DNA from: a virus | Reading direction: 5' to 3' (one strand) | Length of the DNA: 7,514 nt | IMG/VR virus record: IMGVR_UViG_3300007517_000068 | Location: 1 to 7,514 of that record | In this document: positions 1 to 7,514 of the stretch, piece by piece | Layout: every line of letters starts with the position of its first letter | Position numbering within the stretch: position 1 is the stretch's first letter | The notes under the pieces: generated by a model | Seen by the model: only the letters and a program-made list of their open reading frames with translations | Told to the model about the DNA's origin: nothing | Database searches by the model: none | Position numbers and translations under genes: made by a program

Positions 1-395
1 CCGTCAGGGCCGTCTCGATGACTCCCGACGCGACCAGGGCGCACCCCCCTAGGCCGTCAGGGCCGTCTCGATGACTCCCGACGCGACCAGGGCGCACCCC
101 CCTAGGCCGTCAGGGCCGTCACGATGACTCCCGACGTGGCCAGGGCGCACCCCCTTAGGCCGTCAGGGCCGTCTCGATGACTCCCGACGTGGCCAGGTCG
201 CACCCCCTTAGGCCGTCAGGGCCGTCTCGATGACTCCCGACGCGCCCAGGTCGTGCCCCCCTAGGCCGTCAGGGCCGTCTCGATGACTCCCGACGCGATC
301 AGGGCGCACCCCCCTAGGCCGTCAGGGCCGTCTCGATGACTCCCGACGCGACCAGGGCGCACCCCCCTAGGCCGTCACGGCCGGCCGATGACTCC
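1..395. repeat. 53-bp tandem repeat array: 7 full units (starts 1, 54, 107, 160, 213, 266, 319) plus a truncated, diverged 8th unit (372-395)
   Basis: Direct reading gives the consensus ccgtcagggccgtctcgatgactcccgacgcgaccagggcgcacccccctagg. Units 1, 2 and 7 are identical. Substitutions cluster at unit positions 31-43 and 49, and neighbouring units share them (units 3/4 and 4/5). Each unit carries the palindrome CCTAGG, giving TAG on both strands. Confidence 0.97.
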
Positions 396-396
396 A

Positions 397-419
397 CCCG
401 CCGGAGGCGGGTTTTTTTT
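397..419 (+). terminator. Rho-independent terminator closing the late operon and repeat array
   Basis: cccgcc-gga-ggcggg forms a perfect 6-bp GC stem. It is immediately followed by a T8 run (412-419). Confidence 0.75.
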
Positions 420-550
420 GCACCAAAAAGTGTTGTATTACTACAACTGTAGGCGTAATTTACATTTACATCATACAATTACAGTACATCGCTACAACTG
501 TATGATACAATGTAATCACTACAATCCGTAGTGTTTTTAAGGTGTACACC
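420..550 (+). promoter_or_regulatory. AT-rich, TACA-rich control region (candidate promoter and/or origin) upstream of the KfrA-like gene
   Basis: There is a sharp GC drop relative to the flanks. Three copies of CTACAA(C/T)(T/C)(C)GTA(G/T) lie at 441-452, 492-503 and 519-531, the first being the inverted repeat ctaca-ac-tgtag. TACA words recur every 6-7 nt between 461 and 496. A sigma70-like pair TTACAG (479-484), 16 nt, TATGAT (501-506) is present, along with TACAAT boxes at 474, 506 and 520. Confidence 0.45.
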
Positions 551-1180
551 ATGGCTCTCACTGTTCAGCAGATCCACGCAGCCGCAACTTCGATAGATGC
601 GGCAGGCCAAAAGCCGACTCTCGCCGGCATACGTGCAAAACTGGGATCGGGCTCCTATTCCACGATCTCGGCCGCACTGGCGACTTGGCAGCGCCAGGAC
701 GTCCAGTCGTCCGACCTCCCTTCTGAGCTGCCTGATGATGTTCAGCAGGCCTACGACCTCGCCGCGCTGACAATGTGGCAACTGGCCGTTAAGTCGGCGT
801 CAATGGAATTTGTATCTGAGCGCAAAGCCTTCGAAGCTCGCATTGCTGACCTTGAGGAGAATCTGCGCGTTAGTTCGGCAGCGGTCGACCAGCTTGATGT
901 CGACGTCGATTCCCTTCGTTTCAAGGTGGCGTCATTTGAGATGTTGTGTGCCGATCAGCAAGCAATCGTTGCTGACCAGTCTCGAAGCCTTCAGACTGCA
1001 AATAGCATGCTGGAGGTTGCTCAGTCCATGGCCAGTGAACGTTTGAAAACGATTGACTCCCTGCAATCGTTCCTTGCCACCGTCACTGTGGTCCCGCCTG
1101 TTTTTGAGCTGGTCCCGGGGCCAGCCCCCGACGTGCGTGATGCCAAAAAGCCCGCCAGGCCAAAAAAGCCACCCCTCTGA
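551..1180 (+). CDS. KfrA-like DNA-binding protein: N-terminal KfrA_N-type domain plus long coiled-coil and a basic Pro/Lys tail
   Basis: This is the ORF-track ORF 542..1180. I prefer the ATG at 551, which is preceded by AAGGTG (539-544). The N-terminus MALTVQQIHAAATSIDAAGQKPTLAGIRAKLGSGSYSTISAALATWQ fits the remembered KfrA_N pattern G-x2-PT-x4-(I/V)R-x2-LG-x-GS-x2-TI-x6-W. The central part is heptad-like and Ala/Leu/Glu/Gln-rich. The C-terminus is KKPARPKKPPL. Confidence 0.7.
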   Translation: MALTVQQIHAAATSIDAAGQKPTLAGIRAKLGSGSYSTISAALATWQRQDVQSSDLPSELPDDVQQAYDLAALTMWQLAVKSASMEFVSERKAFEARIADLEENLRVSSAAVDQLDVDVDSLRFKVASFEMLCADQQAIVADQSRSLQTANSMLEVAQSMASERLKTIDSLQSFLATVTVVPPVFELVPGPAPDVRDAKKPARPKKPPL

Positions 1181-1190
1181 CACGTCAATC

Positions 1191-1212
1191 AAAGCCCATT
1201 CGTGGGCTTTTC
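1191..1212 (+). terminator. Probable intrinsic terminator after the KfrA-like gene
   Basis: aaagccca-ttcg-tgggcttt forms a perfect 8-bp stem with a tetraloop. It runs into TTTT (1208-1211) and starts 11 nt after the stop codon. Confidence 0.55.
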
Positions 1213-1342
1213 GGCAATCCCCTTCTTGATAGGCAAAACCTGTCGAGCATCAATCCCTTGCCGTGATGCCCGGTATTCCGGGCATGTGCCGAAGGCCCAA
1301 ACCCGCATGCATACAATGCCTCCGACGCACCGAGGACGCTCA

Positions 1343-1363
1343 AGCGCCGCACGCGGCGGTGCT
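1343..1363 (+). other. ACGCR-pentaloop hairpin, copy 1 of 3
   Basis: agcgccgc-acgcg-gcggtgct forms an 8-bp stem with one G.T pair. It has the same architecture and loop as the hairpins at 3997-4017 and 6299-6319. Confidence 0.5.
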
Positions 1364-1424
1364 CCATGGCAATGCCTCATGCTGTAGGTCGTCACCCCGC
1401 TACTCCGTACGACGCGAACCCGTA

Positions 1425-1853
1425 TCACAGGCAAGAAAAAACCCGCTCTAGGCGGGTTGTCTGGGGTGGCTGTTTCTTCACATAACACGGGTCGCGGAAT
1501 ATACATCGTGGAAGACCGGACTCTGGTCTACCTGTAGGGCCTGGGTGCTGCCCACTTGAACCACTCGCCTCGGTGGTCGCTGGCGACCCTTTTCCCAAAG
1601 CCACCGCCAGGCGCGCCCCCTTTGCTGTTCCTGCGTGTTTGTCCAGCAGCGCACGTATCAGCCACGCCTCGGCGTCCAGCCCTGCAATTGAGGCCAGTAA
1701 CGCCGCGTCCTCGGGCTGCGCGTTCTTGCTGCCGTGTCTCCAGTTGCTCACCGTCTGGCGTGGAACACCCAGCGCCTGCGCTACCTTGTAGTCACTGCCT
1801 AGCACTTTTGCCGCTCTGTCAATCAGTGGAACTACTAACGTAACTTTTTCCAT
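1425..1853 (-). CDS. HTH (Cro/CI-type) phage repressor or immunity regulator
   Basis: This 142-aa ORF is the only convincing minus-strand gene. A classic HTH segment SDYKVAQALGVPRQTVSNWRHG lies near the N-terminus. The SD AAGGA sits 6 nt upstream of the ATG (minus strand, 1860-1864). It is divergent from the rep operon across an operator-like region. The C-terminal half is low-complexity. Confidence 0.8.
   Translation of the reverse strand: MEKVTLVVPLIDRAAKVLGSDYKVAQALGVPRQTVSNWRHGSKNAQPEDAALLASIAGLDAEAWLIRALLDKHAGTAKGARLAVALGKGSPATTEASGSSGQHPGPTGRPESGLPRCIFRDPCYVKKQPPQTTRLERVFSCL
1436..1458 (-). terminator. Intrinsic terminator for the repressor transcript, embedded in the last codons of the ORF
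   Basis: The minus strand reads aacccgc-ctaga-gcgggtt followed by T6. The hairpin and T-tract lie 9 nt upstream of the TGA stop (1425-1427). Confidence 0.6.
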
Positions 1854-1949
1854 GACGTATCCTTTAGGGGTTACATTTCAAACCGTCACCAATTTAGGTT
1901 ACCTGCCCTGTTTGGTTACGTAACCCAAATGTATATCTAAGGAGCGAGC
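1854..1949. promoter_or_regulatory. Divergent promoter/operator region between the repressor and the rep operon
   Basis: A perfect 12-bp palindrome GGTTACGTAACC lies at 1914-1925 and extends to tttGGTTACGTAACCcaaa. Additional GGTTAC half-sites lie at 1869-1874 and 1897-1902, and a GTAAC lies at 1840-1844. The region is AT-rich relative to its flanks. A strong SD AAGGAG (1939-1944) serves the downstream ORF. Confidence 0.6.
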
Positions 1950-2132
1950 TTGATTAAAGTACCTTGCACTCTAAAAGTCCATTGTTACGTTTGCACGTGG
2001 CCTACCCGTCGCGGCCCAGCTCGCCGCGTTTTCACCTCGCCCCACGCTCTTGATGGCTACGTGCTCGAGCTGCGCCGCATCGGCTGCCCTCTGACCTGGG
2101 TCACACCGTTTGTCGTTCAGGCTGTTCTGTGA
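1950..2132 (+). CDS. Small Cys-containing hypothetical protein (60 aa, TTG start), first gene of the rep operon
   Basis: AAGGAG lies 5 nt upstream of the TTG at 1950. The stop TGA (2130-2132) overlaps the GTG start of rep (GTGA). The Cys pattern is C-x5-C-x2-C plus one distal Cys. No family was recognised. Confidence 0.5.
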   Translation: MIKVPCTLKVHCYVCTWPTRRGPARRVFTSPHALDGYVLELRRIGCPLTWVTPFVVQAVL

Positions 2133-3193
2133 AAACCACCCCACCAGCAGCAACACACCGCGCAACCGCGCGGCGCGTCGTCCCCAAGGCGAAGCCTTCC
2201 CCCAGTGCTGTAACACTGGGGGAAACCTCTGAGAAAACCACCACCTCCCAGGCCCCTGGTCCTGGTCCTCAAGGGGCCAAAGTTGATTGGTTTACGTGCA
2301 CGTGGAAGCCTGAGCCCGATGAGCACGTGGTCGGCACCATCCTTGGCTTGCTGCGCTCGATCGGGATAGCAGCCCATGCTGACGTCGGCTCTGGTCATTT
2401 CGGCTATGGCTACGGTGCTCGCATCTATACCCTGCTCGATGACGGCGCACACCACCAAGTGGCTCTCGTTGACTGGGGCGGCGACCGCATGCGAGGTCGC
2501 GCACGTCTTGATCTGTCCGGGTCGGGCTGTAGCCGCGTCACCAGCTTCCAGCCGGTTCAGGATTGGCTTGGCCATCAGTGGGAGCCGACTATCACCCGCG
2601 TGGATCTGGCCGTTGATTGCCTTGAGGGTGAATACACCGTCGACCACGCCCGTGACTGGCTTCTTTCTGGCGAGTTCACGGCTGGCGAAGGTCGTCCACC
2701 CCGGCACTCCACACCTGGGGATTGGCTCTCCGAGGTGCCATTTCACGGGCGGACCCTCGAAGTCGGGCGGCGTGAGAACGGGAAGATGCTCCGGGCCTAT
2801 GAAAAGGGCCTACAGCTCTCTCCTGGCAGCGGCGACAAGTGGACCCGATTCGAGGTGGAGCTGCGCCGCAAGGATCGCGACATACCGCTGGACGTGCTGA
2901 CTCGTTGCGACGAGTACTTTGTCGGCGCTTATGTCTGCCTGCAGCGTCTCCTGCCTGTGGCTGGCCAGCGTATCGCCACCCATCAAAAAGAGGGTGAGCT
3001 GTCCCTGCAGCAGCTTCTCCACTGGTGCCGCGAGAGTTATGGAAAAGTCGTCAATGTGGTGCGCGCTCATGCCGACCTAGACGAAGTGCTCGACCTCATT
3101 TCCCGACCCGGAACACCTAAGCGGCTTGAAAAAGCGTTCGGGGTTGGATTTAACGCGAGTTCGCTGCTCGAATCTATGAAGGCTCCCCCATGA
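2129..3193 (+). CDS. Rolling-circle replication initiator, RstA/Rep_trans-like (gene II equivalent)
   Basis: The 354-aa ORF has motifs that I recall from Rep_trans/RstA-type initiators: VDWFTCTW near the N-terminus, ITRVDLAVDC, LRAYEKG (candidate catalytic Tyr) and WTRFEVELRRKD. It sits immediately upstream of the gV-like gene. Its GTG start is coupled to the upstream ORF, and there is no in-frame ATG upstream of the VDWF motif. Confidence 0.85.
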   Translation: MKTTPPAATHRATARRVVPKAKPSPSAVTLGETSEKTTTSQAPGPGPQGAKVDWFTCTWKPEPDEHVVGTILGLLRSIGIAAHADVGSGHFGYGYGARIYTLLDDGAHHQVALVDWGGDRMRGRARLDLSGSGCSRVTSFQPVQDWLGHQWEPTITRVDLAVDCLEGEYTVDHARDWLLSGEFTAGEGRPPRHSTPGDWLSEVPFHGRTLEVGRRENGKMLRAYEKGLQLSPGSGDKWTRFEVELRRKDRDIPLDVLTRCDEYFVGAYVCLQRLLPVAGQRIATHQKEGELSLQQLLHWCRESYGKVVNVVRAHADLDEVLDLISRPGTPKRLEKAFGVGFNASSLLESMKAPP

Positions 3194-3528
3194 AAGCACA
3201 CGTAATTGGCATTGAAATCGCCGAAGGTATTTCCAAAAAGACAAACAAGGCATACGCCATTGGCAAGCTTTACGCCACCCTCCCGCTCGCTGGTGGTGAT
3301 GGTGTCCGCGGCCATATGGGCTCGATGTATATGTGCGAGCCATCCGTCCTCCGCAAGCTCTCGAACGTTCAATTGCCCGTCGAATGCGAATTGGAAATGC
3401 AGGATGTTATGCGCTACGGAGAACGTCGCTCCGAGATTGTGTCCGTCGTGCCCGTTGCTGCGCCCCAAGCAGCCGCGTCTAGGCAAGCTGCATCCTCGGT
3501 CGCTCTCGGCGCTTCTGCTCGGGTGTGA
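3190..3528 (+). CDS. Putative ssDNA-binding protein (gene V equivalent)
   Basis: This is a 112-aa ORF whose ATG overlaps the rep stop (ATGA), with AAGG 7 nt upstream. The assignment rests on conserved position and size only. The tail is Ala-rich. Confidence 0.55.
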   Translation: MKAHVIGIEIAEGISKKTNKAYAIGKLYATLPLAGGDGVRGHMGSMYMCEPSVLRKLSNVQLPVECELEMQDVMRYGERRSEIVSVVPVAAPQAAASRQAASSVALGASARV

Positions 3529-3542
3529 GTGGGCAAGGTGGG

Positions 3543-3580
3543 TAACCGCCGCCCCCATGCGCAGCATGGTGCAGCGGTTA
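3543..3580 (+). other. Nested stem-loop in the gV-downstream intergenic region
   Basis: The outer stem pairs taaccgc (3543-3549) with gcggtta (3574-3580). It encloses an inner hairpin catgc-gca-gcatg (3556-3568). Confidence 0.4.
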
Positions 3581-3611
3581 TCCACCAACTCCGCACAAAC
3601 CAAAAAAAGCC

Positions 3612-3773
3612 ATGAAAAACCTCTACGCCTCCGCCTTCGTGTTGGTGTTCCTGGCAGCGTGTGGCGGCCACGCCTACAAAAACACGCTCGCACACCGTGG
3701 CTCTCTCCTGTACCCCCCTGGCTACCCCCCTGAGGAGCACGTAACAGAAACCGCACGGCGGGGCCTCTGGTGA
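3612..3773 (+). CDS. Small predicted lipoprotein (53 aa)
   Basis: This ORF is not in the ORF track because it is under 60 aa. It translates as MKNLYASAFVLVFLAACGGHAYKNTLAHRGSLLYPPGYPPEEHVTETARRGLW, with a Lys n-region, a hydrophobic core and the lipobox L-A-A-C. Its stop overlaps the next ATG (TGATG). No obvious SD is present. Confidence 0.5.
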   Translation: MKNLYASAFVLVFLAACGGHAYKNTLAHRGSLLYPPGYPPEEHVTETARRGLW

Positions 3774-3871
3774 TGGACTGGGGCAATACAAGCCATGTGC
3801 TTCAAGCCATTTTCTGGGCTATTGCTTTTCTCGCCTTCGCTCACGGCTACACCGCAGGTGATCGCCAATGA
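3773..3871 (+). CDS. Tiny hydrophobic protein (32 aa), pVII-like minor coat candidate
   Basis: It translates as MDWGNTSHVLQAIFWAIAFLAFAHGYTAGDRQ and has one hydrophobic helix. Size and position (between gV and the major coat gene) match Ff pVII/pIX. It is overlap-coupled on both sides. Confidence 0.55.
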   Translation: MDWGNTSHVLQAIFWAIAFLAFAHGYTAGDRQ

Positions 3872-3984
3872 TTGATGTTTCCGACGCTGTAATGATTTTT
3901 TCCGGAATCGCTGGCCTTTGGGCCTCTGGCTATGCTGCTGGCAAAGCAACTGCTTGGATTCGCGCTATTCTTAGCGCTGCATAA
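3868..3984 (+). CDS. Tiny hydrophobic protein (38 aa), pIX-like minor coat candidate
   Basis: It translates as MIDVSDAVMIFSGIAGLWASGYAAGKATAWIRAILSAA. The SD-like AGGTGA (3856-3861) lies 6 nt upstream, and there is an ATGA overlap with the preceding ORF. Confidence 0.6.
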   Translation: MIDVSDAVMIFSGIAGLWASGYAAGKATAWIRAILSAA

Positions 3985-3996
3985 CTAGGACTGTCA

Positions 3997-4017
3997 AACG
4001 CTGCACGCAGCAGCGTT
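3997..4017 (+). other. ACGCR-pentaloop hairpin, copy 2 of 3
   Basis: aacgctgc-acgca-gcagcgtt forms a perfect 8-bp stem. It starts 13 nt after the pIX-like stop, and no T-tract follows. Confidence 0.5.
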
Positions 4018-4077
4018 CATCGAATCCCCTTTTAGGGACAACGACCCGGCGTTTTCCGGGAATTCTGAAAGTCTCCC

Positions 4078-4311
4078 ATGCTGTTCTCTCTCAAACGTCA
4101 AGTTTTGGCCATCTTTGCTTTTGTGCTGGCTGCTCTCTCGCCTGCTGCATTTGCCCAAGCCACCGGCGCCGCCGCAACCTTCGGGACCACCATGACCGGG
4201 ATGACGTCTGACGTTACGACCTATGGTGGCCAGCTGGTTGTCTTGGCCGCTGTCGGTGTGGCCTTCATGGTCGGTATCAAATACATCAAGAAAATTCGCG
4301 GCGCCGCATAA
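4078..4311 (+). CDS. Major coat protein (gene VIII equivalent)
   Basis: The 77-aa precursor has a signal peptide ending AFA|QA. The roughly 51-aa mature part has a small-residue N-terminus, a hydrophobic core LVVLAAVGVAFMVGI and a basic C-terminus KYIKKIRGAA. This is the canonical inovirus coat architecture. Confidence 0.85.
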   Translation: MLFSLKRQVLAIFAFVLAALSPAAFAQATGAAATFGTTMTGMTSDVTTYGGQLVVLAAVGVAFMVGIKYIKKIRGAA

Positions 4312-5972
4312 TGAAAAGAGACTCAATTAAGTGCAGCTCAACGATGTATCTTCGTTGGGTCTCTATCATTCCATTTTTGCTGCCTATTGCCGTATTTCCT
4401 CAGGCTCTGCCAAGTGTAGCGTTTCCGCTAACCACAATCGGCACTGTAACCACCTTCGGCCCATTAACTGCTGACGCAACAAACGCGTCTCGATTTACCT
4501 TTGGTGCCGCGTCCAATGGTGCAATATTTGCCAACGCAGACGGTTTCAAGCCGACTGCTGGCGGTGCGTCTATACCTGTCAACGTCTCCTCCGCCATCAA
4601 TCCCAGCGCGGCCCGTGCTGCTATTGGCAACTTTGTTAAAAGGGTTGCCCCCCCCCTGATCCTGGCCTCCGCAGCCGTTGACCTCGCACGTGAGCTTGGA
4701 TGGGGTGTGTCTCCTCCTCTTGTTCCCGGTGGACCCCTCCAGCTTGTTCGCCCTGGCGGCAACACCACCAATCTTGAATGGGGACCACCCGCCGATCCGA
4801 ACTTTTGGGGCACGCCTTTGGAAGCGTACGCCCGGCAAGTGTCTCTAATGGCCAATTCATTCATCCGTACTGGCTTAGTCGTGGTCCCTCTTACTGGCGG
4901 TGGATTTAACGGTACTCACACCGCTTGTCTGCCCCCGCCAGATTCTCTTTGTCACGCTAATCAAGGGTCAACGAATATCACCCGGAACCGGACCCGTACC
5001 CCTCCGACTCAAAACGAACTTGGTGATGCAATCATCGCGTCGGTTCCCACTCCCGCGTCATTCGCTCCAGCCCTTCGTGACGCTGTTACTGCCGGTGATT
5101 CTGTGCCGGTTGCCCCTACCGCTGTCACCGGTCCTGCCTCGTCAACCTCCCCTTCAACTGTTGCCCCTGGTCCGAACGTCGGAAGCGACCCGACCACAAT
5201 TACAACCACCACTCAGTCCGGTCACACCTACTCGCCTTCCGCCCCGACGGTAACCACAACGACTACAGATACAGCTATCCGCCGCCGCACCTCCGATGGT
5301 GTAGAGGTTGACCGTGTTATCACCGTCGATGGCATACCTATCACTGTCCCAAACCCAAATTTTGTGCCCACGCCCCCACCGGCACCGGCACCGTCACCGG
5401 CACCAGCACCAGCGCCAGCGCCAGCACCAGCGCCAGCACCAGCGCCAGCGCCAGCACCAGCGCCAGCGCCAGCACCAGCGCCAGCACCAGCGCCAGCACC
5501 AGCACCAGCACCAGCACCAGCGCCAGCACCAGCGCCAGCACCAGCACCAGCACCAGCACCAGCACCAGCACCAGCACCAGCACCTGCGCCTGCACCAGCA
5601 CCTGCGCCAGCGCCTGAGCCTCTTCCCTTTGAGCTGCCCTGTGGTGTTCTCGGCAAACCTCCTTGCAATGTAAAAATCGACGAGGCTGGCACGCCGCCTA
5701 TTCCAGCGCGTCCCCTTGGCGCTGCTGAGGATTTGATCATTTCCGAGAGAGCCGTTTCTGAGGCTGCAATTGATCAAGCTGAGGACATTCTTATCCCCGC
5801 CTGGACGTGGACCTTCCAACTCCCAACAGGTTGTGCAAGTTTGCCTATGTGGGGTGTTATTGTTATCGATCCTTGCCAGTATCAGGGTATTATCCATGAT
5901 CTAATGTCTATGATTTGGGCGATTACTGGTGTGTTTGGTTTGTTTGCTATCCTTCGAATGGGAGTCCATTAA
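4311..5972 (+). CDS. Adsorption / minor coat protein (gene III equivalent) with Thr-rich and Pro-Ala linkers
   Basis: The 553-aa ORF starts at a TAATG overlap with the coat gene and has an N-terminal hydrophobic signal-like segment. Its layout is modular: N domain, Thr/Ser/Pro-rich stretch, (PA)n linker, C domain. The C-terminus FQLPTGC...VIDPC...IWAITGVFGLFAIL parallels the remembered Ff pIII C-terminal C...IDC plus membrane-anchor layout. Confidence 0.85.
   Translation: MKRDSIKCSSTMYLRWVSIIPFLLPIAVFPQALPSVAFPLTTIGTVTTFGPLTADATNASRFTFGAASNGAIFANADGFKPTAGGASIPVNVSSAINPSAARAAIGNFVKRVAPPLILASAAVDLARELGWGVSPPLVPGGPLQLVRPGGNTTNLEWGPPADPNFWGTPLEAYARQVSLMANSFIRTGLVVVPLTGGGFNGTHTACLPPPDSLCHANQGSTNITRNRTRTPPTQNELGDAIIASVPTPASFAPALRDAVTAGDSVPVAPTAVTGPASSTSPSTVAPGPNVGSDPTTITTTTQSGHTYSPSAPTVTTTTTDTAIRRRTSDGVEVDRVITVDGIPITVPNPNFVPTPPPAPAPSPAPAPAPAPAPAPAPAPAPAPAPAPAPAPAPAPAPAPAPAPAPAPAPAPAPAPAPAPAPAPAPAPAPAPAPAPEPLPFELPCGVLGKPPCNVKIDEAGTPPIPARPLGAAEDLIISERAVSEAAIDQAEDILIPAWTWTFQLPTGCASLPMWGVIVIDPCQYQGIIHDLMSMIWAITGVFGLFAILRMGVH
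5379..5615 (+). repeat. Hexanucleotide (CCR-GCN) microsatellite encoding a 79-residue Pro-Ala tract
   Basis: Uninterrupted ccn-gcn codon pairs (mostly cca gca / cca gcg) run from 5379 to 5615 in the pIII frame, with one Ser substitution. Confidence 0.95.
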
Positions 5973-6292
5973 TGCCTATTTTTGCTGCATTGTTTAGCGC
6001 TGTTTCCGGCGCATTTGGTATTCTTATTGCAAAGATGTTTGCAGCAAGAATATCTATTCGAGCCGTGGGTGTCGCTGCGCTCATAGCGTTAACGCTTGGT
6101 CTTGTCGTTGCTTTTAATCTTGCCATTGCTCCGTTTGTGCAGGCTGTGTTCTCAACTCAGTACGGCCAATTCCTTGGCTTGTTGTTTCCGCCCATTGCTG
6201 GATCAGTTGTTGCCGCGCTTATGGCTTTTTGGCTCGTTGTTATGACCTACCGCCTCCAGACGCGCGTCGTCTCTCTTACGGCCAGCGTCTAA
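5972..6292 (+). CDS. Hydrophobic minor coat protein (gene VI equivalent), 106 aa
   Basis: The ORF-track ORF 5915..6292 is trimmed to the ATG at 5972. That ATG overlaps the pIII stop (TAATG) and has GGAG (5961-5964) 7 nt upstream. The product is strongly hydrophobic with multiple TM segments, and its size and position match pVI. Confidence 0.7.
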   Translation: MPIFAALFSAVSGAFGILIAKMFAARISIRAVGVAALIALTLGLVVAFNLAIAPFVQAVFSTQYGQFLGLLFPPIAGSVVAALMAFWLVVMTYRLQTRVVSLTASV

Positions 6293-6298
6293 GTCTCA

Positions 6299-6319
6299 AA
6301 CCCCGCACGCGGCGGGGTT
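6299..6319 (+). terminator. ACGCR-pentaloop hairpin, copy 3 of 3 (possible T-tract-less terminator or attenuator)
   Basis: aaccccgc-acgcg-gcggggtt forms a perfect 8-bp stem. It starts 7 nt after the pVI-like stop. Confidence 0.45.
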
Positions 6320-6454
6320 CCGCAATGTCTCTGCGTTAGGGATCGTTACCCGAAGGGCTGAGACAATGTAATCATTGGCTCAGTGCGCAGCATAGAGCCC
6401 GGGTGGCTTTAGCCACAACGCCCTATTCCTTCACCAATTAATCCATAAAAAATC

Positions 6455-7354
6455 ATGGCTGTTTATTTAGTTCAGGGAAAATTAGGCACTGGTAAATCTA
6501 AATTCTGTGTGTGGGTTGCAAAGATTGCTATTTATTACGGTCGGCGTGTAGCTGGGAATCTTGATATTCATGTTGAGAAGTTATCGCCCAGTAAACCAAA
6601 AGGTTATGTTAGGTTACCAGATAAACCAACCTCATTCGATTTGAATGCAATTGGCCACGGCAATCCTGATACCTATGACGAGTCCAGAAATGGTGTCTTG
6701 ATCCTGGATGAACTGGGAACGTGGCTCAATTCTCGATCTTTTCAGGATAAAAACAGGGCTGACTTATTGGATTGGCTCATTCATGCCAGGAAAAAGGGTT
6801 GGGATGTTTATTTGATTGTGCAAGATGCAATGATGATTGATAAGCAGGTCAGGGAAGCATTGGTTGAATACACGGCAACCTGTTTGCGCATGGACAAGGT
6901 GAAAATCCCTTTTGTCGGTGGAATCCTCAATTCTTTGGCTGAAACATTTAATGCATTAGCTGGCATTCGTAAGCAATCCAAGTTCGGCTATTTGCCATTT
7001 TTTCACTTGGTCGTTGCTAGAATAGGTTCGGGCTCTCAGCAAGTTGTCGCTGAGCGATGGACGTACATCGGTCGAGATTTGCACGATATGTATGACACTC
7101 GGCAGATATTCCAGAGCGATTATCCTCATGGTTCTTTTTGCGTTTTGCCTCCATGGGATTACGTAATTCCGACAACTTGGCTCCAGCGGTTTTTGGCTGC
7201 TCGATCCGCCGGGCGGCGCGCTGTGCGCGCTCCCTATCCCCGCGTCCGTTCCCCGATGGTTGAGGGATTGGCCAGCATTGATGACCGTGATGTTCGTTGG
7301 AGGCTTGCTAGGGCCGTCACCTTGACCCGACGCGACGAGGGCTCACCCCCCTAG
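6455..7354 (+). CDS. pI/Zot-family assembly ATPase (gene I equivalent), apparently lacking the TM and periplasmic part
   Basis: The N-terminus MAVYLVQGKLGTGKSKF closely resembles the remembered Ff pI start MAVYFVTGKLGSGKT (Walker A). Further collinear blocks are RLPDKP, NGVLILDELGTW (Walker B), LDWLIHARKKGWDVYLIVQD, IDKQVREAL, IPFVGG and ERWTY.G..L..MYDTRQ.F. Similarity ends near aa 230. The remaining 70 aa are Arg-rich with no hydrophobic segment and end at the TAG of a repeat unit. Confidence 0.9.
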   Translation: MAVYLVQGKLGTGKSKFCVWVAKIAIYYGRRVAGNLDIHVEKLSPSKPKGYVRLPDKPTSFDLNAIGHGNPDTYDESRNGVLILDELGTWLNSRSFQDKNRADLLDWLIHARKKGWDVYLIVQDAMMIDKQVREALVEYTATCLRMDKVKIPFVGGILNSLAETFNALAGIRKQSKFGYLPFFHLVVARIGSGSQQVVAERWTYIGRDLHDMYDTRQIFQSDYPHGSFCVLPPWDYVIPTTWLQRFLAARSAGRRAVRAPYPRVRSPMVEGLASIDDRDVRWRLARAVTLTRRDEGSPP

Positions 7355-7514
7355 GCCGTCAGGGCCGTCTCGATGACTCCCGACGCGACCAGGGCTCACC
7401 CCCCTAGGCCGTCAGGGCCGTCTCGATGACTCCCGACGCGACCAGGGCGCACCCCCCTAGGCCGTCAGGGCCGTCTCGATGACTCCCGACGCGACCAGGG
7501 CGCACCCCCCTAGG
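7313..7514. repeat. The same 53-bp tandem array: a degenerate 43-bp edge unit (7313-7355) plus 3 full units (7356, 7409, 7462)
   Basis: Direct reading shows that the unit at 7356 has a single G>T change and that the units at 7409 and 7462 equal the consensus. The window ends exactly at a unit boundary, in phase with position 1. The degenerate unit forms the last codons of the pI/Zot ORF. Confidence 0.96.

Follow-up and report, generated by a model that had tools for sequence, protein, structure and literature searches.

Can the gene I/Zot protein of a filamentous phage lack its membrane-spanning part and still be an intact gene product? This question is raised by the IMG/VR virus record IMGVR_UViG_3300007517_000068, of which positions 1 to 7,514 were analysed as a whole (7,514 nt, one strand; hereafter the window). 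The last gene of its open reading frame (ORF) map, gene I/Zot at 6455-7354 on the plus strand, encodes a protein of 299 aa. In the textbook model pI and pXI together span the membrane as one complex, which is coupled to the secretin through its periplasmic part. A sequence-only reading of the window had claimed that this gene I keeps only the cytoplasmic ATPase domain and had offered three explanations: truncation by an adjoining repeat array or by recombination, with a defective or helper-dependent element as the outcome; a Zot-like ATPase that is soluble and relies on a separate partner in the membrane; or an ATPase co-opted for another role next to the array. Our analysis indicates that gene I very probably encodes an intact, clade-typical pI devoid of a transmembrane (TM) segment, and the second explanation is the best supported of the three.

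ATPase domain, missing TM module and phage secretin

The canonical gene 1 protein consists of a cytoplasmic Walker domain, a TM anchor and a periplasmic part working with p4, and includes the internal gene 11 (bioRxiv 10.1101/2022.09.21.508815). In the window, residues 1-234 of the gene I product (6455-7156, plus strand) constitute a cytoplasmic P-loop ATPase domain that ends at the conserved L231-P-P-W234. Its Walker A (G8-KLGT-G13-K14-S15) and Walker B (V81-LIL-D85-E86) motifs are invariant or nearly so across the family alignments, and Pfam Zot (PF05707) matches residues 2-149 (E 5.6e-21). PHROG 1675 ('protein I of M13') aligned residues 1-236 with profile positions 1-225 of 353 (E 3.3e-84), leaving positions 226-353, the C-terminal third of the profile, without a counterpart in the gene I product. 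In tblastn searches the matches to pI of If1, M13, f1, IKe, PEar and VFJ (40-45% identity) ended at residues 234-241; collinearity with pI, which the sequence-only reading had seen ending near residue 230, thus extends to 234. The best PDB fold match detected by Foldseek was the N-terminal domain of Neisseria Zot (2r2a), followed, as expected within the superfamily, by RecA, KaiC and viral packaging ATPases at E-values just 10- to 100-fold weaker, and whole-protein Foldseek searches of PDB and BFVD reported solely Zot-domain and other P-loop ATPases.

The TM segments of M13 and If1 pI (VLCLAIGFASAFTYSYITQP and VLCLFCGFVSAFTYLSLS, respectively) align to nothing in the query. Conversely, the 65-aa tail following the ATPase domain aligns with nothing in the C-termini of M13 or If1 pI, i.e. 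it contains no periplasmic secretin-contact domain. As the known TM helix of M13 scores just 1.31 on the Kyte-Doolittle (KD) scale, a TM cut-off of KD >= 1.6 was dropped and replaced by an uncharged-run criterion calibrated on M13 and If1. The longest run free of D, E, K and R in the whole query comprises 12 residues, compared to 20 and 18 residues in the known TM helices of M13 and If1, and the best 19-residue KD window after residue 231 reaches 0.30 versus 1.3-1.6 for the M13/If1 TM segments. Profile match, tblastn, alignment and hydropathy thus bear out that only the ATPase domain of pI is present, and the description of the tail as rich in Arg, Ala and Pro (13, 8 and 6 residues, respectively) without a hydrophobic stretch is equally accurate.

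An internal start comparable to that of pXI was not found: M268, the sole Met of the tail, would give rise to a 32-residue peptide without a TM segment. A search for a separate pXI-like gene in the TM-less genomes yielded none, the small membrane proteins being only pVII/pIX-like proteins, coat protein, pVI-like protein and a small lipoprotein. As the sequence-only reading had stated for the other two plus-strand frames, a hydrophobic continuation is absent; this holds for all three plus-strand frames through the array, including the wrap of the circle to base 600. Readthrough or frameshifting into the array was therefore rejected as a TM source, since no frame gives a hydrophobic product. An overlapping ORF was also rejected as a general solution, as it is present in loci L003, L010 and L011 and absent from the window. 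In these Hydrogenophaga-type phages an alternative-frame ORF of 60-64 aa lies within the 3' part of gene I (L003 10629-10823; L011 8629-8823; L010 8629-8811) and carries a hydrophobic stretch (e.g. IALLLVGLAGGFLAS). This ORF may represent a true overlapping gene for a membrane protein, or it may simply result from conservation of the main frame.

The short form is not peculiar to the window. A protein search retrieved 811 homologues, the best 120 of which (274-333 aa, 56-74% identical) cover 79-100% and usually 96-100% of the query, i.e. the tail is included. Applying the calibrated criterion to these 120 proteins, a clear TM segment after the ATPase domain was detected in a single one (P0118), and two more were marginal cases representing Pro-rich runs. 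In a library of 50%-identity cluster representatives 308 proteins matched at E <= 1e-30. Among the nearest 150 representatives, 97 contain a TM-like segment (median 384 aa) and 53 do not (median 292 aa), the latter count including a few fragments or false negatives of the strict TM test. Many TM-less representatives that are 40-48% identical to the query end in 'LPxxxR[IW]xxxRRLxxxGA[ILF]'. The TM-less class is clearly large and old. As defined here, its features are a length of ~260-335 aa, an ATPase domain ending in L-P-P-W, the basic tail motif and the absence of a phage secretin, all of which apply to the query. The tail of the class measures ~50-100 residues.

In a scan of one genome per species, the hosts of the clade were Comamonadaceae and other Burkholderiales. 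Metagenome-assembled genomes of Hydrogenophaga (66-68% identity), Rubrivivax and Rhodoferax encode the short pI, and prophages carrying it were found in the isolates Xenophilus azovorans DSM 13620, Tepidimonas alkaliphilus YIM 72238, Variovorax sp. UC74_104 and Variovorax gossypii DSM 100435. Each of these genomes encodes a pI of 266-312 aa without a TM segment. The gene for the homologue P0017 belongs to a prophage that is flanked by cyaY and lysA within a contig of 5.36 Mb. Many other relatives are contigs of 5.4-7.2 kb, and twelve TM-less ones are complete circles as judged by terminal overlaps.

Within the clade, presence of the TM segment strictly followed presence of a phage secretin. 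Among the 55 distinct complete clade pI proteins in the fetched loci, 53 are TM-less and lack a secretin, and the remaining two are TM-bearing and accompanied by a secretin. These two exceptions (protein cluster P0118; 8989-10266) belong to prophages of Limnohabitans sp. T6-20 (L013) and Comamonadaceae PBBC2 (L012), in which the secretin gene (PF00263 Secretin, E 8e-16) is located directly downstream of the pI gene. A secretin hidden Markov model built on M13, If1, L012 and L013 had no match in the window, in the 53 TM-less loci or in any fetched locus besides L012 and L013. In a neighbour-joining tree of the ATPase domain, calculated without support values, the TM-plus-secretin type was nested in the TM-less clade, with TM-less Variovorax proteins branching deeper and the Ff phages outside. 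Since the TM segment tracks the secretin in all 55 proteins and the TM-plus-secretin type holds this nested position, these data suggest that the C-terminal module was swapped at the domain boundary together with gain or loss of pIV. The strict link between TM module and secretin strengthens the reading of a soluble ATPase with a separate membrane partner.

The basic helical tail and its proposed function

At the position taken in Ff pI by the TM helix and the periplasmic domain, gene I of the window encodes a basic helical module (residues 235-299 plus stop codon; 7157-7354, plus strand) with a net charge of +6, the family median being +9. Across the family the layout runs from L-P-P-W via an amphipathic basic helix and a Pro/Lys/Arg-rich linker with a nearly fixed P-K to a C-terminal motif, with the tail consensus [KR]P[KR]xxx[VL]xx[LI]xx-L-P-(D)-P-D-x-R-[IWV]-R-L-x-[RK]-R. 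Column counts in 111 proteins amount to 96 for P264, 73 for K265, 90 for L275, 89 for P276, 77 for D279, 92 for R281, 61 for R283 and 59 for R286. At these columns the query tail ('...RVRSPMVEGLASIDDRDVRWRLAR...') has V264, I275 and D276, and it keeps D279, R281, R283 and R286 as well as V269 and L272. Its motif register, R263-V-R...V269..L272..I275-D-D-R-D279-V-R281-W-R283-L-A-R286, agrees with the family at most positions.

AlphaFold2 (AF2) modelling of the full-length protein from the 111-sequence alignment resulted in a confident structure (pLDDT 91.9, pTM 0.82; ATPase domain pLDDT >90), in which the tail forms helices at residues 242-258, 267-273 and 278-294. Over residues 241-290 the pLDDT values of successive 10-residue blocks were 96, 80, 85, 97 and 94, followed by 66 for residues 291-299. 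Helix 1 (WLQRFLAARSAGRRAVR, residues 242-258; 7178-7228, plus strand) has a hydrophobic moment of 0.44 and a net charge of +5, and aligns in the columns where TM-bearing pI has the basic juxtamembrane stretch ahead of its TM helix. The conserved C-terminal motif (7253-7315, plus strand) comprises helix 2 (PMVEGLA, 267-273), the turn SIDD (274-277) and the start of helix 3 (278-294; R-DVRWRLARA = 278-287). The amphipathic tail helices carry net charges of +5 and +4. When the tail was modelled alone the helices were retained (pLDDT 83). As the pTM dropped to only 0.42 despite this pLDDT, the models suggest that the tail packs on the ATPase core rather than constituting a free domain.

Inoviruses without pIV exit via host secretins (PMC10011098). 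By analogy, the phages of this clade, as other pIV-less inoviruses, would leave the cell through a host secretin; without a pIV to contact, the periplasmic module would be dispensable, and the TM plus secretin-contact module could have been exchanged at about residue 235 for the cytoplasmic tail. This tail would pack on the ATPase core and present its cationic amphipathic helices. The ATPase would then act from the cytoplasmic face, held at the inner membrane by tail helices that bind acidic lipids and/or a membrane partner. In the genome analysed here the 53-nt array has, in addition, become fused to the 3' end of gene I, where its contribution is limited to the stop and the preceding ~13 codons, which are poorly conserved. 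We consider it probable that gene I encodes an intact, full-length peripheral assembly ATPase whose basic tail replaces the TM/secretin-contact module in host-secretin-using phages. Docking to the membrane or to a partner through the tail itself is a tentative proposal to which we give somewhat less than an even chance.

Candidate partners would be pVI, the pVII/pIX-like proteins, the coat protein, a small lipoprotein or the platform of host type IV pili (T4P) or type II secretion systems (T2SS). The lipoprotein (53 aa, lipobox L-A-A-C) is encoded at 3612-3773 on the plus strand. It is conserved in the nearest TM-less phages: at the corresponding place L003, L006, L010, L011, L029 and L030 encode homologues that show the motif 'ACGxYTYQNTH', and the secretin-encoding L012/L013 have there an unrelated 75-aa ORF with one TM-like segment in the KD scan. 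The lipoprotein might be an envelope partner of the TM-less ATPase. It might equally be a secretin/envelope adaptor or an exclusion factor.

A bolder version, in which the tail plugs the ATPase into the host T4P/T2SS platform that already serves a host secretin, so that the whole trans-envelope machine and not just the outer-membrane pore would be borrowed, or alternatively reads the packaging signal directly, appears rather unlikely to us. If true, pI/pXI would no longer be an obligatory membrane-spanning complex. Sequence recognition by the tail can also be formulated as an explanation in its own right, namely that the tail is a nucleic-acid-binding module in which a helix-turn-helix (HTH)-like pair (267-273 / 278-294) exposes an Arg face to the packaging-signal hairpin or other phage DNA, like the C-terminal DNA-recognition domain of FtsK, with membrane placement solely via the membrane-embedded coat proteins. 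The median tail charge of +9, the conservation of R281, R283, R286 and R287 on the last helix, and the succession of a short helix, a 4-residue turn and a long basic helix in both AF2 models agree with this idea. Genetic suppression data in Ff phages connect gene I with the packaging signal. Moreover, pI belongs to the FtsK-HerA superfamily (PMC6813254). However, the tail resembled no HTH or winged-helix domain in the fold and sequence searches, its pTM of 0.42 when modelled alone does not mark it as a clearly independent domain, and DNA binding would not account for how the motor is held at the membrane. DNA binding is the chief competing proposal for the role of the tail, but we regard it as unlikely.

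Membrane attachment in cis by a segment outside the tail was weighed as well. The hydrophobic helix at ~151-171 (IPFVGGILNSLAETFNALAGI) could serve as a re-entrant or in-plane anchor, in which case the protein would not be truly soluble. It is the most hydrophobic stretch in most members, with 19-residue KD values of up to 1.5-2.0 at ~151 and of 1.18 in the query; compared with Ff pI, the nearest subclade carries an insertion of 12-13 residues at this place, and AF2 predicted a helix at 155-169. Against this, the uncharged run of the query measures only 12 residues, the helix is placed inside the ATPase fold between two core strands (pLDDT 95-97), many family members lack the insertion, and the equivalent of M13 pI aligns before its TM helix, in the cytoplasmic domain (bioRxiv 10.1101/2022.09.21.508815). 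Altogether, an anchor at this position is improbable.

Repeat array, base composition and genome context

The 3' end of gene I runs into a 53-nt tandem array. Its first, degenerate unit (7309-7355, plus strand) overlaps the last ~13-15 codons and the TAG stop (7352-7354), which lies in CCTAGG (7350-7355). Positions 7326-7355 differ at just 2 sites from the last 30 nt of the 53-nt unit, and weaker similarity with indels extends back to ~7309; an ungapped register over 7303-7355 gave 20 mismatches, and Tandem Repeats Finder (TRF) set the array start at 7326. The sequence-only reading was hence right that the final codons are a degenerate repeat unit. Its statement that the TM part was replaced by a tail decaying into the array does not hold, since only residues ~287-299 (AVTLTRRDEGSPP) are array-derived and the tail to ~286 is a conserved feature of the family. 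The query ends in '...RWRLAR-AVTLTRRDEGSPP' and its closest relatives in '...RWRLA[RK]-[VLI]LA[ND][RH]...' (P0003, P0005 and P0006 were compared). Beyond ~residue 287 the family is variable in length and sequence.

As had been noted, local GC rises from 52% to 75% at 7200, and the exact values are 0.517 at 7141-7200 and 0.750 at 7201-7260. Within gene I, the ATPase part has a GC content of 0.432 (GC at third codon positions, GC3, 0.42) and the tail one of 0.631 (GC3 0.62). The GC3 of rep, ssb, kfrA and coat is 0.59-0.65, and that of 5661-7156 is 0.42-0.46. A low-GC block of ~1.4 kb (~5750-7170, GC 0.43-0.50) reaches from the 3' end of gene III across gene VI and the spacer through the ATPase domain. 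The GC jump is the edge of this unusually low-GC block beside a tail of normal GC, and relatives show no such contrast between ATPase domain, tail and the rest. In its subclade type the tail agrees with the ATPase domain ('RWRLA[RK]', shared with P0003 and P0006; 'RWAMAH' in P0005). A recently acquired foreign GC-rich tail was accordingly rejected, as the closest relatives of the tail are the subclade of the ATPase domain and it is the ATPase block that is the compositional outlier. The block was probably acquired by recombination with a lower-GC relative, and the shared subclade type of tail and ATPase domain indicates an exchange between close relatives. We infer that the right junction of this mosaic coincides with the ATPase-tail boundary, i.e. 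the boundary at which C-terminal modules differ between relatives.

These observations bear on the proposal that the array or a recombination event truncated gene I and that the element is defective or helper-dependent. The array origin of the last ~13 codons and stop, the compositional junction at ~7170-7200 and the query's departures from the consensus at P264, P276 and P278 could be taken as traces of such an event. However, array-less relatives match the query in length and tail, the query still shows the conserved motif as far as R286, and the tail is predicted to be structured. In addition, the identical 299-aa protein was found on a JGI contig (L008) and, from another project and a separate sample, on an ENA contig (L009); gene I in both differs from the window by one synonymous change (7210 C/T), so that the phage was present in two separately sequenced samples. 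Finally, rep, ssb, pVII/pIX-like proteins, coat, pIII, pVI and pI are all present. The truncation proposal had itself named as contrary evidence close relatives with proven virion production that share the short TM-less protein as the norm. Most of this is borne out, as the relatives do share the short form as the norm. Taken together, the evidence makes truncation very improbable.

The idea that the ATPase was co-opted for an array-tied function, e.g. partition or replication, starts from the array abutting gene I, with a KfrA_N-like DNA-binding protein on the other side of the array, and from a homologous 51-nt repeat flanking gene I on both sides in L029. The gene III-gene VI-gene I order is nevertheless canonical and the Walker motifs are intact, the array motif occurs in just 4 of the 96 fetched loci, representing two lineages (L008 and L009, i.e. 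the window's phage, and L029 and L031), while the short pI is general, and without pI the genome would be left with no assembly ATPase. Co-option is therefore barely credible.

Least of all can an assembly error or frameshift that hides a TM-encoding C-terminus be invoked: repeat arrays are prone to misassembly and the copy number differs between assemblies (9 versus 2), yet no downstream frame contains a hydrophobic segment, gene I is the same in the JGI and ENA assemblies, the gene-array junction is unchanged in L009 despite just two repeat copies, more than 100 homologues end alike, and a terminator follows the array. From the sequence comparisons a concealed TM helix is very unlikely, and we give this explanation practically no weight.

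The array itself continues over 7356-7514 and, across the ends of the record, over 1-395 (both plus strand; TRF), with 7.5 copies in the latter part and ~9 on the circle of ~7408 bp. It is directly followed by an intrinsic-terminator-like hairpin (ACCCGCCGGAGGCGGGT) with a T8 run (396-420, plus strand), and the same sequence follows the 2-copy array in L009; with the hairpin at this position, the array would be the 3' untranslated region of gene I. About nine copies in the window and in L008 compare to two in L009 (1035-1141), where they were either collapsed by the assembler or are truly variable in number. The 53-nt period is close to five helical turns and each unit contains a direct sub-repeat GGCCGTC, features that would suit phased protein-binding sites (iterons or a centromere-like site). 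Single-stranded DNA structure of the array was unremarkable (DNA fold z -1.15), and Rfam had no match in the window. The homologous 51-nt repeat (core TAGGCCGT..GGCCGTC) belongs to a second lineage, L029/L031, with 71% identity in pI. Copies border gene I at either end (L029 1704-1785 and 2708-2840; the same in L031), the pI ATG being within one of them, and such direct repeats could drive a cassette-like exchange of the gene. Other relatives have unrelated short tandem arrays of 4-6 copies between gene I and rep (14-17-nt units in L003, 10939-11475; 15-nt units in L006, 4092-4261). Iteron-like arrays between gene I and rep thus seem to be general, with a sequence that differs from lineage to lineage.

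The window represents the complete, circular genome of a filamentous phage, cut within the array: its last 106 bases, i.e. two 53-nt units, duplicate bases 1-106, which gives a real circle of ~7408 bp, and L008 is a circular permutation of the window with 99.9% identity. Directly after the array and terminator lies the gene for the KfrA_N-like DNA-binding protein (542-1180; Pfam E 5.9e-23), followed by an HTH repressor gene on the minus strand (1425-1853), the rep gene for a Rep_trans rolling-circle initiator (2129-3193) and the ssb gene for an RstB-like single-stranded DNA-binding protein (3190-3528). Between the lipoprotein and coat genes there are two pVII/pIX-like ORFs (33 aa and 38 aa), and the coat protein (77 aa) is succeeded by a pIII-like protein of 553 aa with an (Ala-Pro)n linker and, upstream of gene I as in Ff, by a gene VI-like multi-TM minor coat protein of 106 aa (5972-6292, plus strand; DUF5455 / PHROG 17485). 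ORF map, Pfam and PHROG thus provide the full inovirus gene set of rep, ssb, pVII/pIX-like, coat, pIII, pVI and pI. No secretin, integrase or recombinase gene was found in the window genome. The element looks like an intact, episomal inovirus.

Several side observations concern these neighbouring genes. The KfrA_N-like protein and the absence of integrase and recombinase genes suggest an episomal lifestyle with a plasmid-like maintenance function; instead of the KfrA_N-like gene, relatives have a resolvase gene (L003) or nothing comparable. The long (Ala-Pro)n linker of the pIII-like protein stems from a hexanucleotide repeat of ~39 copies (5377-5611) that also creates long artefactual ORFs, both on the minus strand and in other frames, and gene III was overlooked by the automatic gene caller on L008. 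Gene VI and gene I abut or overlap in most relatives examined (L003, L006, L027, L011). They are separated by 162 nt in the window (6293-6454) and by an 80-nt gap with repeat copies in L029. The RNA of the window's spacer is predicted to form several hairpins (z -2.7), including AAACCCCGC...GCGGGGTT at 6299-6319, and 'CCCGAAGGGCT' is common to this spacer and to the L029 region downstream of gene I.

Weight of the evidence and comparison with known systems

A number of points weigh against an intact peripheral ATPase with a membrane-tethering tail. The query is off consensus at three well-conserved tail positions (V264, D276 and R278, each in place of P), and these changes together with the array-derived last 13 residues may have caused some loss of function in this copy. 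The tail found no match in a Pfam scan of 35 tails, in a profile search of PDB sequences or in Foldseek with the tail-only AF2 model. The TM test is a hydropathy heuristic and not a dedicated predictor, and the tree that places the TM-plus-secretin type within the TM-less clade is devoid of support values. No clade member has been shown to produce virions. Furthermore, the short form is present in no cultured INPHARED phage, where the best tblastn matches were Ff-type at <=45%. Many secretin-less inoviruses, among them CTXphi-type and Methylobacter-type loci (36-39% identity), retain the TM helix, which implies that loss of pIV alone does not explain loss of the TM segment.

According to Roux et al. 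2019 (PMC6813254), a genuine inovirus pI-like cluster must hold one or two TM domains (TMDs), N- or C-terminal. Judged by the pI-cluster criteria of that study, the gene I product has Zot as its closest Pfam family and other inovirus genes alongside, and contains neither one nor two TMDs. This widely used curation rule would reject the TM-less class, and pipelines applying it would miss the lineage. Megablast of the whole window against GenBank phages returned nothing and tblastn solely Ff-type and Vibrio pI at <=45%; in the literature searches, neither a TM-less pI class nor Comamonadaceae inoviruses were found to be described. ATPase domain and genomic context place TM-less pI within the pI/Zot family, as a so far undescribed architectural class that stands outside the canonical membrane-spanning architecture.

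As regards the window, the suggestion of a broken gene is removed, and gene I taken singly is ordinary within its clade. At the level of the clade, the architecture and its strict complementarity with the phage secretin are moderately interesting and can be tested in cultured strains. With the TM-less class, access to the cytoplasmic face would be enough for the motor to work, and the question becomes what tethers it to the membrane and how it is coupled to the host secretin.

Among known systems, pI of the Ff-type phages (M13/f1/fd, If1, IKe) has an N-terminal domain 41-45% identical to the query over residues 1-234, the same Walker A and B motifs and the same gene position after genes III and VI, and presumably the query, too, is a filament-assembly motor. 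Unlike the query with its 65-residue basic tail, Ff-type pI has a TM helix at ~254, a periplasmic domain of ~75 residues, the internal-start product pXI and the phage secretin pIV. The L013/L012 prophages (P0118) are closer in the ATPase domain (57-63% identity) and share the host family and the upstream order of small TM proteins, coat, gene III-like and gene VI-like genes. They differ by a length of 328-330 aa, a clear TM helix (KD 1.8-2.0), a periplasmic domain of ~65 residues and a secretin gene directly downstream.

CTXphi Zot, VFJphi pI and the Methylobacter-type proteins of L023-L026 likewise combine a Zot-domain ATPase with dependence on a host secretin (PMC10011098), but they have a TM helix and a long C-terminal region, are 361-471 aa long and are 36-41% identical to the query. 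Short 'Zonular occludens toxin' proteins of uncultured Inoviridae in BFVD/UniProt (e.g. A0A8S5V634, 206 aa) also have a Zot-like fold and are likened to the query by fold and length alone, their identity being just 14-18%. GspE and PilB of T2SS and T4P belong to another ATPase family and the fold match is weak (PilF 5oiu, E 1.8e-4), so that the likeness is limited to function: these soluble ATPases drive an envelope machine that assembles filaments, they work with a secretin, and a separate platform protein (GspL/PilM, GspF/PilC) keeps them at the inner membrane.

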